From: a virus
Lineage: Duplodnaviria; Heunggongvirae; Uroviricota; Caudoviricetes
Length of the DNA: 5,844 nucleotides
IMG/VR virus record: IMGVR_UViG_2529292919_000006
Reading direction: 5' to 3' (one strand)
Shown: positions 1 through 5,063 of the stretch, piece by piece
Layout of the letters: every line of letters starts with the position of its first letter
Numbering within the stretch: the stretch's first letter is position 1
The notes under the pieces: model-generated
Seen by the model: only the letters and a program-made list of their open reading frames with translations
Databases searched by the model: none
What the model was told of the DNA's origin: nothing
Made by a program: the position numbers and the translations under genes

Positions 1-233
<233 letters not shown>

Positions 234-249
234 TCATCCGTCGTTGACA

Positions 250-318
250 ACGACCCGGCCAACCCTGAAAGAACTGGCAGCGAAGCTGTCCGGAGGAGTG
301 AATGGTTACAGTCGCTGA
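250..318 (+). pseudogene. Putative 3' remnant of the terminase large subunit gene (lambda A homolog), truncated upstream by the IS insertion
   Basis: Frame 1 is open from the IS tail to TGA at 316-318 and reads ...TTTRPTLKELAAKLSGGVNGYSR*. It overlaps the W start (302), matching the lambda arrangement where A ends overlapping W. Assignment rests on synteny and position, not a verified alignment. Confidence 0.4.
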
Positions 319-508
319 ACTGCAGGCGCTGCGTCAGGCGCGCCTTGATTTATTAACCGGTAAACGGGTGGTGTCTGTCCAGAAAGATGGTCGCAGAATT
401 GAATATACGGCGGCTTCTCTGGATGAGCTTAACCGGGCGATCAATGATGCGGAGTCGGTACTGGGGACAACCCGGCGTCGCCGTCGTCCGCTGGGAGTGA
501 GGTTATGA
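302..508 (+). CDS. W: Head-tail joining / head completion protein W (gpW family), 68 aa
   Basis: 68-aa ORF containing LTGKRVVSVQKDGRRIEYTAASLDEL and an RRRR-rich C-terminus, same length as and clearly similar to lambda gpW as I recall it. GGAGG at 292-296 precedes ATG 302. Stop TGA 506-508 overlaps the portal ATG (ATGA). Confidence 0.9.
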   Translation: MVTVAELQALRQARLDLLTGKRVVSVQKDGRRIEYTAASLDELNRAINDAESVLGTTRRRRRPLGVRL

Positions 509-2097
509 AACGAACGCCTGTCCTGATTGATGTGAACGGCGTTCCGCTTCGTGAGAGTCTCAGCTACAACGGGGGCGGTGCAGGATTTGGCGGGCAAATG
601 GCGGAGTGGTTGCCACCGGCGCAGAGTGCCGATGCGGCCCTGTTGCCCGCGTTGCGTCTGGGCAATGCCCGTGCAGATGATCTGGTGCGCAATAACGGGA
701 TAGCGGCCAATGCGGTGGCCCTGCATAAGGATCATATTGTCGGGCATATGTTTCTGATCAGCTACCGTCCGAACTGGCGCTGGCTGGGGATGCGGGAGAC
801 TGCAGCAAAAAGTTTTGTCGATGAGGTGGAGGCGGCCTGGTCGGAATACGCCGAAGGGATGTCTGGCGAGATCGACGTGGAAGGGAAACGCACGTTTACG
901 GAATTTATCCGTGAAGGTGTGGGCGTTCATGCGTTTAACGGCGAAATCTTTGTGCAGCCGGTCTGGGATACGGAGAGCACGCAACTGTTTCGTACGCGTT
1001 TTAAAGCCGTGAGTCCGAAACGGGTGGACACGCCAGGACACGGTATGGGGAACCGTTTTCTGCGGGCCGGTGTGGAGGTCGATCGATATGGTCGTGCCGT
1101 TGCGTACCATATCTGTGAGGATGATTTTCCGTTCTCCGGGAGTGGACGATGGGAACGGATCCCGCGTGAACTTCCCACCGGGCGTCCGGCCATGCTGCAT
1201 ATTTTCGAGCCGGTGGAGGACGGGCAGACCCGTGGGGCCAATCAGTTTTACAGCGTAATGGAACGGCTGAAGATGCTCGATTCCCTGCAGGCAACACAGC
1301 TTCAGTCGGCCATTGTGAAAGCCATGTATGCAGCGACGATTGAAAGTGACCTTGATACCGAAAAGGCCTTTGAATATATCGCCGGTGCGCCGCAGGGGCA
1401 GAAGGATAATCCGCTTATTAATATTCTGGATAAGTTCTCCACCTGGTATGACACGAATAGCGTGACGCTGGGTGGTGTCAAAATTCCGCACCTTTTCCCC
1501 GGTGATGATCTGAAACTTCAGACTGCGCAGGATTCAGACAATGGATTTTCGGCGCTTGAACAGGCGCTGCTGCGGTATATCGCCGCCGGTCTTGGCGTTT
1601 CCTACGAACAGTTGTCCCGTGATTACTCGAAGGTCAGTTATTCAAGTGCCAGGGCCTCTGCCAATGAGTCGTGGCGCTATTTTATGGGGCGGCGAAAATT
1701 TATTGCGGCCCGGCTGGCCACGCAGATGTTTTCCTGCTGGCTGGAAGAGGCACTTCTTCGGGGGATTATCCGTCCGCCACGGGCGCGTTTTGATTTTTAT
1801 CAGGCGCGATCAGCCTGGTCACGGGCAGAGTGGATTGGTGCCGGAAGAATGGCCATTGACGGGCTCAAGGAGGTTCAGGAATCGGTGATGCGCATTGAGG
1901 CCGGACTGAGCACGTATGAGAAAGAGCTGGCGCTGATGGGCGAGGATTATCAGGACATTTTCCGCCAGCAGGTCAGGGAATCTGCTGAGCGACAAAAAGC
2001 CGGACTCTCACGTCCGGTGTGGATAGCGCAGGCGTATGAGCAGCAGATAGCGGAGAGTCGCAGGCCGGAAGAGGAGACAACACCCCGTGAGACGTAA
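505..2097 (+). CDS. B: Portal protein (lambda gpB family), 530 aa
   Basis: 530-aa ORF with long conserved blocks shared with lambda gpB as I recall it (GNARADDLVRNNG, FEPVEDGQTRGAN.FYSVME, LQSAIVKAMYAATIES, LLRYIAAGLGVSYEQLSR, YSSARASANESW.YFMGRRKF, WIG.GRMAIDGLKEVQE, IEAGLSTYEKE). Lambda gpB is about 533 aa. ATG overlaps the W stop. Confidence 0.95.
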   Translation: MKRTPVLIDVNGVPLRESLSYNGGGAGFGGQMAEWLPPAQSADAALLPALRLGNARADDLVRNNGIAANAVALHKDHIVGHMFLISYRPNWRWLGMRETAAKSFVDEVEAAWSEYAEGMSGEIDVEGKRTFTEFIREGVGVHAFNGEIFVQPVWDTESTQLFRTRFKAVSPKRVDTPGHGMGNRFLRAGVEVDRYGRAVAYHICEDDFPFSGSGRWERIPRELPTGRPAMLHIFEPVEDGQTRGANQFYSVMERLKMLDSLQATQLQSAIVKAMYAATIESDLDTEKAFEYIAGAPQGQKDNPLINILDKFSTWYDTNSVTLGGVKIPHLFPGDDLKLQTAQDSDNGFSALEQALLRYIAAGLGVSYEQLSRDYSKVSYSSARASANESWRYFMGRRKFIAARLATQMFSCWLEEALLRGIIRPPRARFDFYQARSAWSRAEWIGAGRMAIDGLKEVQESVMRIEAGLSTYEKELALMGEDYQDIFRQQVRESAERQKAGLSRPVWIAQAYEQQIAESRRPEEETTPRET

Positions 2098-3593
2098 TCT
2101 TTCACACATTATTGCCGCAGCATTCAATGAACCGCTGCTTCTGGAGCCCGCCTATGCGCGGGTTTTCTTTTGCGCGCTCGGGCGCGAGATGGGGGCATCA
2201 AGTCTTTCGGTACCACAACAGCAGGTACAGTTTGATGCTCCCGGAATGCTGGCTGAAACGGACGAGTACATGGCCGGAGGTAAACGACCGGCCCGTGTTT
2301 ACCGGGTGGTGAACGGTATTGCGGTACTGCCGGTGACCGGCACGCTGGTGGCACCGGCTGGGGGGGATGCGGCCATTTTCCGGAATGACTGGCTATGACG
2401 GCATTGTCGCCTGTCTTCAGCAGGCAATGGCAGATAGCCAGGTGCGGGGCATACTGCTGGACATTGACAGTCCGGCGGGCAGGCCGCCGGCGCGTTTGAC
2501 TGCGCTGACATGATTTACCGCCTCCGTCAGCAGAAGCCGGTCTGGGCACTGTGCAATGACACGGCCTGTTCTGCAGCCATGCTGCTGGCGTCGGCCTGCT
2601 CCCGACGGCTGGTTACCCAGACATCCCGTATCGACTCCATTGGCGTGATGATGAGCCATGTCAGCTATGCCGGTCATCTGGCGCAGGCCGGTGTGGATAT
2701 CACGCTGATTTACTCAGGGGCGCACAAGGTGGATGGCAATCAGTTTGAAGCCTTACCGGCAGAGGTTCGCCAGGACATGCAGCAGCGCATTGATGCGGCG
2801 CGCCGGATGTTTGCCGAAAAAGTGGCCATGTTTACCGGTCTGTCTGTTGATGCCGTCACGGGAACAGAGGCCGCCGTTTTTGAAGGTCAGTCCGGCATTG
2901 ATGCCGGGCTGGCGGATGAATTAGTCAATGCGTCGGATGCCATCAGTGTGATGGCCACGGCGCTGAACAGTAATGTCAGAGGAGGCACTATGCCGCAATT
3001 AACTGCAACGGAAGCCGCCGCGCAGGAGAACCAGCGAGTGATGGGGATCCTGACATGCCAGGAAGCGAAAGGACGTGAACAGCTTGCCACGATGCTGGCA
3101 GGACAACAGGGCATGAGCGTTGAACAGGCCCGGGCGATTCTGGCCGCGGCGGCACCGCAGCAGCCGGTGGCATCCACGCAGAGTGAAGCCGATCGCATTA
3201 TGGCGTGTGAAGAAGCGAACGGTCGTGAACAACTGGCGGCAACGCTGGCGGCGATGCCGGAGATGACGGTGGAAAAAGCCCGCCCGATCCTGGCTGCTTC
3301 ACCGCAGGCGGATGCCGGACCCTCACTCCGTGATCAGATCATGGCGACTGGATGAGGCAAAAGGGGCTGAGGCGCAGGCTGAACAGCTGGCTGCCTGCCC
3401 GGGAATGACTGTGGAGAGCGCCCGGGCTGTGCTGGCTGCGGGATCAGGTAAGGCAGAACCGGTCTCTGCATCCACAACCGCCCTGTTTGAACGCATCATG
3501 GCGAACCATTCACCGGCAGCGGTACAGGGTGGCGTGCCACAGACGTCAGCAGACGGTGATGCGGACGTGGAAATGCTCATGGCCATGCCATGA
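2087..3593 (+). pseudogene. C: Head maturation protease / scaffold gene (lambda C-Nu3 homolog, S49-like serine protease N-domain plus Nu3-like scaffold C-domain), interrupted by three frameshifts
   Basis: Homologous protein sequence is continuous only if the frame changes three times. Segment 1 is 2087-~2366 in frame 2 (GTG start, NEPLLLEPAYARVFFCAL ... NGIAVLPVTGTLVAPAGG). Segment 2 is ~2367-2474 in frame 3 (MRPFSGMTGYDGIVACLQQAMADSQVRGILLDIDSP). Segment 3 is 2474-~3349 in frame 2 (GGQAAGAFDCADMIYRLRQQKPVWAL ... GIDAGLADELVN ... DQIMA). Segment 4 is ~3351-3593 in frame 3 (DEAKGAEAQAEQLAACPGMTVESARAVLAA ... EMLMAMP*). The annotated frame stops at 2396-2398 and 3353-3355. Shift 1 is in a G7 run at 2360-2366, shift 2 at 2472-2476, shift 3 at 3347-3350. 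Confidence 0.8.
3035..3503 (+). repeat. Three tandem, diverged copies of a ~47-53 aa scaffold (Nu3-like) motif; lambda gpC/Nu3 has one copy as I recall it
   Basis: Units RVMGILTCQEAKGREQLATMLAGQQGMSVEQARAILAAAAPQ...ADRIMA; CEEANGREQLAATLAAMPEMTVEKARPILAASPQ...RDQIMA; DEAKGAEAQAEQLAACPGMTVESARAVLAAGSGK...FERIMA. Periods are 159, 141 and 157 nt between the conserved IM(A/G) anchors. Copies are diverged at nucleotide level. Confidence 0.7.
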
Positions 3594-3629
3594 AGCCAGT
3601 GCTGACCATCAACAGGAGGTTTTTACAAT

Positions 3630-3977
3630 ATGGTGACGAAAACTATCACTGAACAGCGTGCGGAAGTACGTATTTTTGCCGGTAATGATCCGGCTCATAC
3701 CGCCACAGGCAGCAGCGGGATTTCCTCGGCAACACCGGCACTGACGCCACTGATGCTGGATGAGGCCACCGGGAAACTGGTGGTCTGGGACGGACAAAAA
3801 GCCGGTAGTGCAGTTGGCATACTGGTACTGCCGCTTGAAGGCACAGAGACGGCGCTGACCTATTACAAGTCGGGGACCTTTGCGACGGAGGCAATCCGCT
3901 GGCCTGAAAGTGTGGATGAACACAAAAAGGCCAACGCCTTTGCCGGCAGTGCCCTGAGTCACGCGGCGCTGCCGTAA
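3630..3977 (+). CDS. D: Head decoration protein (lambda gpD family), 115 aa
   Basis: Motifs DPAHTAT, TPLMLD, KLVVWDG, AVGIL, YKSGTF and AFAG match lambda gpD (110 aa) as I recall it. AGGAGG at 3614-3619 sits 10 nt upstream of ATG 3630. Confidence 0.9.
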   Translation: MVTKTITEQRAEVRIFAGNDPAHTATGSSGISSATPALTPLMLDEATGKLVVWDGQKAGSAVGILVLPLEGTETALTYYKSGTFATEAIRWPESVDEHKKANAFAGSALSHAALP

Positions 3978-4034: not shown

Positions 4035-5063
4035 ATGGGATTGTTTACGACCCGCCAGTTACTCGGTTATACCGAACAAAAAGTGAAATTTCGTGCGCTG
4101 TTTCTGGAGCTGTTTTTCCGCCGTACGGTGAATTTCCATACCGAAGAGGTGATGCTGGACAAGATTACCGGAAAAACGCCGGTGGCGGCCTATGTTTCCC
4201 CGGTTGTTGAAGGAAAAGTGCTGCGTCATCGTGGTGGTGAAACCCGCGTGTTACGTCCGGGCTACGTCAAGCCGAAACACGAATTTAATTACCAGCAGGC
4301 GGTTGAGCGTCTTCCCGGTGAAGATCCGGCTCAGCTGAACGACCCGGCCTACCGTCGTCTGCGTATCATCACTGATAACCTCAAACAGGAAGAGCACGCC
4401 ATTGTCCAGGTGGAAGAAATGCAGGCGGTGAATGCCGTGCTGTATGGCAAATACACGATGGAAGGAGACCAGTTCGAGAAAATTGAGGTCGATTTTGGCA
4501 GGTCGACGAAGAATAACATCACTCAGGGTAGTGGTAAGGAGTGGTCAAAACAGGATCGTGACACGTTCGATCCTACACATGATCTTGACCTCTACTGCGA
4601 CCAGGCCAGCGGTCTTGTGAATATTGCCATTATGGACGGTACCGTCTGGCGTCTGCTGAATGGCTTTAAATTGTTCCGCGAAAAACTGGATACCCGTCGC
4701 GGCTCTAATTCGCAACTCGAAACAGCGGTGAAAGACCTGGGCGCGGTGGTGTCCTTCAAAGGGTATTACGGCGATCTGGCCATTGTGGTGGCAAAAACGT
4801 CTTATGTGGCAGAGGACGGTACCGAAAAACGTTATCTGCCTGAGGGCTCGCTGGTCCTGGGGAATACGGCAGCAGAGGGCATTCGTTGCTATGGTGCCAT
4901 TCAGGATGCGCAGGCGTTGTCCGAAGGTGTGGTGGCCTCTTCCCGTTATCCGAAACACTGGCTGACGGTAGGGGATCCCGCCCGTGAATTTACCATGACG
5001 CAGTCCGCGCCGCTGATGGTGTTGCCGGACCCGGATGAGTTTGTGGTGGTACAGGTGAAATAA
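4035..5063 (+). CDS. E: Major capsid protein (lambda gpE family), 342 aa
   Basis: 342-aa ORF sharing long blocks with lambda gpE (341 aa) as I recall it: KFRALFLELFFRR, YVSPVVEGKVLRHRGGET, PGYVKPKHE, DPAYRRLRII, VEEMQAV.AVLYGKYTMEG, KLDTRRGSNS.LETAVKDLG, GDPAREFTMTQSAPLM. AAGGA at 4022-4026 precedes ATG 4035. Confidence 0.95.
   Translation: MGLFTTRQLLGYTEQKVKFRALFLELFFRRTVNFHTEEVMLDKITGKTPVAAYVSPVVEGKVLRHRGGETRVLRPGYVKPKHEFNYQQAVERLPGEDPAQLNDPAYRRLRIITDNLKQEEHAIVQVEEMQAVNAVLYGKYTMEGDQFEKIEVDFGRSTKNNITQGSGKEWSKQDRDTFDPTHDLDLYCDQASGLVNIAIMDGTVWRLLNGFKLFREKLDTRRGSNSQLETAVKDLGAVVSFKGYYGDLAIVVAKTSYVAEDGTEKRYLPEGSLVLGNTAAEGIRCYGAIQDAQALSEGVVASSRYPKHWLTVGDPAREFTMTQSAPLMVLPDPDEFVVVQVK

Follow-up and report, generated by a model that had tools for sequence, protein, structure and literature searches.

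The scaffold domain encoded by a 5,844-nucleotide (nt) stretch of tailed-phage DNA (IMG/VR record IMGVR_UViG_2529292919_000006; we refer to the whole of this stretch as the window) contains three tandem, diverged copies of a unit of ~45 amino acids (aa), and these copies are very probably the 'Tri boxes' that have already been annotated in gene 6 of phage 21, rather than a new element. The window is a lambda-like head-gene block of the phage 21 type, as judged from a map of its open reading frames (ORFs) and from similarity searches. The units lie towards the end of its homolog of phage 21 gene 5 (gene C in lambda), which specifies an S49-type prohead protease fused to a scaffold; a separate scaffold gene (phage 21 gene 6, lambda Nu3) is nested within it in the same frame. 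From the comparisons described below, we conclude that the triplication is ancestral to the phage-21-type clade of enterobacterial lambda-like prophages, and that the copy number of the unit is labile, ranging from 1 to 5 across the family by way of in-frame unequal recombination between units.

In the intact relative, or in a translation of the window after repair of its indels, the three units read ENQRVMGILTCQEAKGREQLATMLAGQQGMSVEQARAILAAAAPQQP, EADRIMACEEANGREQLAATLAAMPEMTVEKARPILAASPQADA and LRDQIMALDEAKGAEAQAEQLAACPGMTVESARAVLAAGSGKAEP. We mapped their boundaries with a 45-position profile of the unit (Table 1). Local BLOSUM62 scores between the units are 101, 87 and 97, versus 25–27 ± 5 for shuffled sequences (z 11–15), and none of 2000 composition-preserving shuffles reached the observed score. 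Sixteen columns are invariant across the three copies; furthermore, a hidden Markov model (HMM) of the unit finds each of them in phage 21 gp5 with an E-value of about 1e-27 to 1e-28. It might be argued that the similarity is a chance property of an Ala/Glu-rich, low-complexity helical region, bearing in mind that the segment is Ala-rich and that DNA-level repeat tools find little in it, but this explanation is made virtually untenable by the shuffles, by the sixteen invariant columns, and by the behavior of the three-unit profile, which among 1.84 billion representative proteins retrieves 477 at E ≤ 1e-3, nearly all of them through the C-terminus of an S49 protease fusion. A sequence-only reading of the window had already placed three tandem, diverged units in this part of the gene, and that proposal holds. 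The end coordinate it gave, 3503, is explained by a partial fourth copy of the motif, LFERIMA, which follows unit 3. In lambda, the single unit is likewise followed by a similar C-terminal tail, which includes LDRLMQ as the counterpart of the ERIMA of the window; the true period of the repeat therefore starts at the E-A-x-G-R-E turn and extends as far as the next xRIMx helix.

At the DNA level the three copies have drifted far apart. The 34-codon cores of the units are 59–67% identical in nucleotide sequence and 56–62% identical in amino-acid sequence, and where two units share an identical residue, identical codons are used in fewer than half of the cases. A DNA-level repeat search yielded short seeds only (for example, GATCGCATTATGGCG, three times; the DNA repeat family D1 has its three copies at 3191, 3332 and 3489), and Tandem Repeats Finder returned no rows for window positions 2900–3650: the copies are too diverged in DNA for that program, so that the repeat is visible only at the level of the protein. 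The sequence-only reading had noted that the copies differ at many nucleotide positions and took the duplication to be old. We agree: from the identity of the cores, the duplication is an old one that has been maintained at the protein level.

The correspondence with the Tri boxes emerges from the GenBank record of the phage 21 head operon (M81255.1), in which three repeat_regions of gene 6 are named 'Tri1 box', 'Tri box' and 'Tri3 box' and are all labelled 'function unknown; putative'. When converted to window coordinates, the boxes fall inside the units; they translate to the unit cores, and the window is 98% identical to phage 21 across them. In the complete phage 21 genome deposited in 2022 (OL657228.1), the nested pair is annotated as 'capsid protease/scaffolding protein' and 'scaffolding protein'. 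Window positions 2080–3600 are 98% identical in DNA to phage 21 genes 5/6 (the head-tail preconnector gp5 and the scaffold gp6 of M81255.1 and OL657228.1), and the likeness extends to the order of the genes (terminase, gp3, portal, 5/6, shp, major capsid protein), to the nested start with its AGGAGG, and to the positions of the three units. The differences from phage 21 are three 1-nt indels of G, a G183D substitution, truncation by an IS100-like insertion sequence (IS), and, within unit 2, IMACEE in place of IMVCEE. The prophages of E. coli O111:H2 12A and E2348/69 are closer still, with 99.7% identity over positions 2080–3600 and the same gene order; their counterpart is an intact 1506-nt gene for an 'S49 family peptidase' (WP_001254032.1). 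We confirmed that intact relatives do carry three units. A relative is present in 2032 of 5426 complete E. coli genomes. In the literature that we searched, we found no functional study of the Tri boxes and no original paper on the phage 21 head genes. The original source is reportedly the work of Smith and Feiss in 1993 (Gene 126:1–7); the part that we have verified is the GenBank annotation. Being annotated in the phage 21 record and common to a large prophage clade, the triplication has little weight as a discovery in itself.

Another line of evidence concerns how widely the three-unit architecture is distributed. The best 150 of the 477 profile matches include 56 proteins with a length of 380 aa or more, and 54 of these carry a single unit, which makes one unit the norm of the wider family. 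We ran a second search, seeded with P0124, a three-unit homolog that is about 57% identical to P0010, the 501-aa E. coli/Shigella protein that heads our alignment. This search added 113 proteins that had not been scored before; their sources are Salmonella, Klebsiella, Citrobacter, Lelliottia, Trabulsiella, E. albertii and E. marmotae. Three-unit proteins number 71 among them and four-unit proteins 38, and there are two proteins each with five units and with two. The three-unit orthologs (50–78% identical; from Salmonella, Klebsiella, Citrobacter, Lelliottia and Trabulsiella) all have units 1 and 2 that are positionally orthologous to units 1 and 2 of the window (71/71), and the multiplication therefore predates the divergence of the phage-21-type clade. 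Gifsy-1 also has three units: its STM2605 protein, together with other S49 peptidases of Salmonella, Klebsiella and Citrobacter (50–78% protein identity), carries them in the same order, although their unit 3 keeps a G-R-E turn versus G-A-E in the phage 21 type. Of the isolated phages, 18 match the query over its full length; the matches span 1514–1520 nt for a query of 1521 nt, so none of these phages has a unit-scale change. The sequence-only reading had allowed that the triplication would be ancestral and unremarkable if intact homologs shared it throughout the family; this is largely what is found within the phage-21-type clade, whereas in the wider family the norm is a single unit.

These data also bear on the idea that this one genome has acquired its three units recently, by expansion, or owes them to an artefact of assembly. 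The sole fact in its favor is that lambda has one unit. Given the divergence of the units in DNA, the failure of Tandem Repeats Finder to see an array, and the presence of the same three units in two independent phage 21 sequences, in Gifsy-1, in 18 isolated phages of the same gene length and in 71 diverged orthologs, this idea has practically no chance of being correct; the sequence-only reading had itself argued against an assembly collapse or expansion.

In agreement with that reading, lambda gpC/Nu3 (NC_001416) has exactly one unit, at aa 358–400 (unit HMM E-value of 3.7e-18). When the units of the window are scored against it, unit 1 obtains 126 and the other two obtain 109 and 90; lambda's unit is therefore closest to unit 1, which makes units 2 and 3 internal additions. 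Lambda gpC/gpNu3 otherwise resembles the phage 21 type in having a homologous protease domain, a scaffold gene nested in frame, and the same genomic position. There are two differences of layout: lambda has a Ser/Thr/Ala-rich linker of roughly 70 aa before its unit, where the phage 21 type has a short linker, and the Nu3 start lies further upstream, within the protease domain. The total length of the scaffold is nearly equal in the two systems (201 aa in lambda versus 200 aa in the phage 21 type).

The number of units varies further among E. coli prophages. Taking as variants those proteins that are at least 81% identical to the query, the 501-aa forms have three units; a 482-aa form (P0041), which is the most abundant allele (at least 1000 contigs), lacks 19 aa of unit 2 and so has ~2.5 units; 451-aa forms (P0086) have two, namely a hybrid of units 1 and 2 followed by unit 3; 452-aa forms (P0098) also have two, units 1 and 3; and 551-aa forms (P0002/P0003) have four. 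Every one of these changes preserves the reading frame; they measure 57 to about 150 nt, mostly the size of a unit, and have their breakpoints at homologous positions of different units. This combination is the signature of unequal recombination. A class of 538-aa proteins (P0278, P0281, P0314 and others, from Salmonella, Citrobacter and E. coli) contains four near-identical units, for which the between-unit identity has a mean of 80% and reaches 97%, versus 52% in three-unit proteins; their sequences indicate recent amplification or concerted evolution. Five units are found in the two proteins noted above, of 568 and 578 aa. Natural variation in copy number from 1 to 5 through in-frame recombination offers an experimental handle on this module in the assembly of lambda-like procapsids.

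Several other length variants were seen in these searches. P0169 (198 aa) and P0232 (194 aa) are distant, short proteins with two units and no protease domain, which suggests stand-alone scaffold genes with independent duplications of the unit in other lineages. P0001 (657 aa, from an E. coli contig of 5,585,611 nt) has a duplication of 156 aa that repeats the end of the protease domain, units 1 and 2 and part of unit 3; this could be either real or an artefact of assembly. In P0080 (721 aa), P0084/P0087 (577 aa) and P0148 (582 aa), the C-terminal part of the scaffold runs on, just beyond its last unit, into unrelated sequence that resembles tail-fibre or host-specificity proteins; these chimeras probably result from deletions in degraded prophages.

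We obtained a model of the units with AlphaFold2, applied to P0010 with a 74-sequence alignment: each unit is predicted to form three short helices, and the linkers between units are of low confidence. The predicted local distance difference test (pLDDT) for the helices is about 75–86 (about 75–84 in the P0010 model), and the same three-helix result was obtained with a 118-aa fragment encoded by the window that contains units 1 and 2. The unit is thus predicted to be a small three-helix module, in the order helix, E-A-x-G-R-E turn, helix, P-G-M-T loop, helix, with flexible Pro/Ala/Gln-rich linkers joining one module to the next. The conserved residues fall in the E-A-x-G-R-E turn that follows helix 1, in an L-A pair of helix 2, in the P-G-M-T/S loop, and in the A-R/K...L-A-A stretch of helix 3. 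A sequence search of the PDB with the 200-aa scaffold gave one chance match only (E-value of 1.3), and Foldseek found nothing in the PDB at E ≤ 0.001, its top match being c-Myb R2R3 (E-value of 4.8). Among Pfam families only the protease domain scores above threshold. We considered a helix-hairpin-helix assignment (Pfam PF00633) and rejected it: this family matches unit 3 only, at 13.1 bits against a gathering cutoff of 24 (E-value of 0.094). The PHROG families 'head scaffolding protein' and 'capsid assembly protein' each match the three units separately, in three stretches.

The units are the most widely conserved segment of that part of gene 5 which is also annotated as scaffolding protein. 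Whole Nu3, the lambda scaffold, has yeast two-hybrid interactions with E, with C and with itself, and Nu3 is genetically required for incorporation of the portal protein B into the procapsid (PMC3224144). With these properties in mind, we hypothesize that the unit could be a conserved docking element that anchors both the scaffold and the protease to the inner surface of the shell as it assembles, through contacts with the major capsid protein (which is presumed to bind the scaffold), with the portal, or with other scaffold molecules. Extra tandem copies on flexible linkers would then provide added valency or reach, rather than a changed capsid geometry. We hold this mechanism tentatively, at somewhat below an even chance, and the function as putative. 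Regarding geometry, the sequence-only reading had suggested that the number of repeats could alter procapsid assembly; we found no evidence of such an effect. The major capsid proteins of lambda and phage 21 are homologous and of similar length (341 aa in lambda, with one unit; 342 aa in phage 21, with three), their gene order is the same, and the heads of the two phages are of the same type. As to its origin, the triplication is the product of internal tandem duplication, which took place in the ancestor of a broad clade of enterobacterial prophages, and purifying selection at the protein level has kept it since then. A more general proposition, that the Tri unit is an interaction module of lambda-type C/Nu3 scaffolds with a copy number (1 in lambda, 2–5 in other enterobacterial prophages) that acts as a tunable valency, changed by unequal recombination, is less likely than not to be correct. 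If the valency interpretation were true, the natural variants would represent a ready-made dosage series for scaffold valency in procapsid assembly.

The scaffold of P22, gp8, provides a functional analogy, in that it too has a small helical element at its C-terminal end, a helix-turn-helix domain that binds coat protein. A preprint describes this element as essential for coat binding (bioRxiv 10.1101/2022.12.13.520362). The analogy does not extend to sequence or to significant structural similarity, and the units differ from the element of P22 gp8 in their three helices, in their tandem repetition, and in their fusion to a protease.

Three observations weigh against the interpretation offered here. 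The M81255.1 record, which named the Tri boxes, itself regards them as putative and of unknown function. No unit-scale change occurs among the 18 isolated phages that cover the full query, and the 2-, 2.5- and 4-unit forms are prophage alleles. Finally, the three 1-nt indels in the window could be sequencing errors, in which case its gene 5 homolog would be intact except for G183D and K495E; we return to this point below.

The gene 5/6 copy in the window does not retain the intact ORF of a functional family member. By reference to both phage 21 and the O111:H2 prophage, we called three frameshifting 1-nt indels, which introduce two premature stops. The two indels in the protease domain are 123 nt apart, and the stop codon at 2396–2398 lies in the out-of-frame stretch between them. 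The third truncates the nested scaffold after unit 2, such that its translation ends in ...DQIMATG. The sequence-only reading had described a frameshift at 3347–3350: by comparison with intact relatives the frameshift is real, but its position is that of a single inserted G at 3346. This +G allele is in none of the 1310 complete E. coli genomes that hold the segment, nor was it detected by an exact 36-mer scan of the GTDB representative genomes. Once the indels are mended, G183D and K495E (3569–3571, near the C-terminus) are the sole protein differences from WP_001254032.1, with no synonymous changes between the genes, and the other head genes in the window have no indel relative to phage 21. 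At its upstream end, the window has the IS100-like element in place of most of the terminase gene, of which the final 69 nt are left. Window positions 1–260 match the ends of genes for 'IS21-like element IS100kyp family helper ATPase IstB' in 2963 E. coli genomes (up to 98.5%); the last ~50 nt of the IS end are about 90–93% identical to E. coli IS100 copies, and the junction of IS with terminase occurs in no complete E. coli genome. Taken together, the three G indels, the G183D substitution and the IS-cut terminase indicate, at the level of sequence, a pseudogene within a decaying and defective prophage. The message for annotation is that this is a degraded prophage with a pseudogenised protease/scaffold gene, and not a variant assembly system.

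The sequence-only reading had suggested that slippage between the tandem repeats may have produced the frameshift. The inserted G does change ATCATGGCA to ATCATGGCGA, a 10-mer that is identical to part of the fourth, partial motif (3495–3504) and is also similar to ATTATGGCG in unit 2; such a match could be produced by a short templated micro-conversion from a paralogous motif, a variant of the idea of repeat-promoted replication slippage or misalignment, and unit-scale recombination does occur in relatives. However, the site is neither a homopolymer nor a short tandem repeat (microsatellite), the units have no exact stretch longer than about 10 nt in common, and the repeat-mediated events in relatives are in-frame changes of 57 to about 150 nt. 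Moreover, the other two 1-nt G indels lie 870–1000 nt upstream of the repeats, in the same gene, which favors a repeat-independent process that explains all three. We therefore find no support for slippage as the cause, and regard a repeat-driven origin of this frameshift as quite improbable. We also rejected programmed frameshifting at 3346: none of the relatives has the extra base, so there is no conserved recoding site.

The alternative that survives best is that all three indels are errors of sequencing or assembly, and that the window derives from a live, intact three-unit scaffold gene. All three lesions involve G, and a contraction of GGG to GG is typical of some platforms; the +G allele at 3346 is private to the window, and the neighboring head genes are free of indels relative to phage 21. 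Against this, all three indels fall in a single gene, although it accounts for about 27% of the prophage-derived sequence in the window, this same gene has the G183D change at an invariant glycine, and the IS-cut terminase would render the prophage defective in any case. We judge this alternative to be unlikely, though far from negligible, and we retain the description of the gene 5/6 copy as a probable pseudogene.

Table 1. Features of the window discussed in the text (all positions in window coordinates).
Feature	Position	Strand	Remark
IS100-like (IS21-family) element, 3' end	1–255	+	istB end and terminal repeat; boundary approximate (250–259)
Terminase large subunit gene, 3' remnant (phage 21 gene 2 / lambda A)	250–318	+	prophage homology from window 250
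Head completion / head-tail joining gene (phage 21 gp3, lambda W homolog)	302–508	+	intact, 68 aa
Portal gene (phage 21 gene 4, lambda B homolog)	505–2097	+	intact, 530 aa; no indels vs phage 21
Gene 5 homolog (lambda C), S49 prohead protease fused to scaffold domain	2087–3593	+	probable pseudogene
Extra G (+1), protease domain	2350	+	leads to stop codon at 2396–2398
Missing G (GGG to GG), protease domain	2473–2474	+	restores original frame downstream
Codon GAC, G183D	2633–2635	+	glycine invariant in 74 homologs (GSIG/GSVG motif)
AGGAGG ribosome-binding site of nested scaffold gene	2980–2985	+	annotated equivalently in both phage 21 records
Gene 6 homolog (lambda Nu3-type scaffolding protein)	2990–3593	+	nested in frame in gene 5
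Repeat unit 1, with Tri1 box (~3057–3160)	3026–3166	+	closest to lambda's single unit
Repeat unit 2, with Tri (Tri2) box (~3197–3307)	3185–3316	+	
Repeat unit 3, with Tri3 box (~3338–3452)	3326–3461	+	interrupted by frameshift (extra G at 3346)
Inserted G, GGC[G]ACTGG	3346	+	leads to stop codon at 3353–3355
Partial fourth copy, first-helix motif only (LFERIMA)	3483–3503	+	predicted helix 461–474
Head decoration gene (phage 21 shp, lambda D homolog)	3630–3977	+	intact, 115 aa
Major capsid protein gene (phage 21 gene 7, lambda E homolog)	4035–5063	+	intact, 342 aa

The gene order of the window is W-like, portal, broken C/Nu3-like, decoration and major capsid, followed by FI- and FII-like genes; gene 5/6 accordingly lies downstream of the portal gene and upstream of the decoration and major capsid genes, in both the ORF map and the annotated relatives. 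In phage 21 and in O111:H2 12A, the terminase coding sequence shares 17 nt with the start of the W-like gene. As a result of its lesions, the gene 5 homolog is split into ORFs at 2087–2398, 2510–3355 and 3312–3593. The protease domain is N-terminal and of the S49 (SppA/ClpP-like) type; in the window it is interrupted by the indels at 2350 and 2473, and in the intact, 99.7%-identical homolog it matches Pfam Peptidase_S49 (PF01343, E-value of 7.3e-35), that homolog also matching phrog_53, 'head maturation protease' (E-value of 5e-229). The gene 6 homolog would encode 200 aa when intact and encodes 120 aa here, being cut by the frameshift. Its putative internal start, the ATG at 2990 just after the AGGAGG, is in a site identical to that of phage 21 and is likewise called 'putative' in M81255.1. 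Within the scaffold gene of OL657228.1 there are two matches to a 'CII binding site' pattern (ttgynnnnnnttgy), at L004 1216–1229 and 1450–1463 (~2995–3008 and 3229–3242 of the window, minus strand); these matches are pattern-based only and are probably not meaningful. Rfam has no family that matches the window on either strand. Antisense ORFs run across the region on the minus strand, for example at 2887–3198 and 3323–3586, and we have treated them as by-products of the high G+C content.

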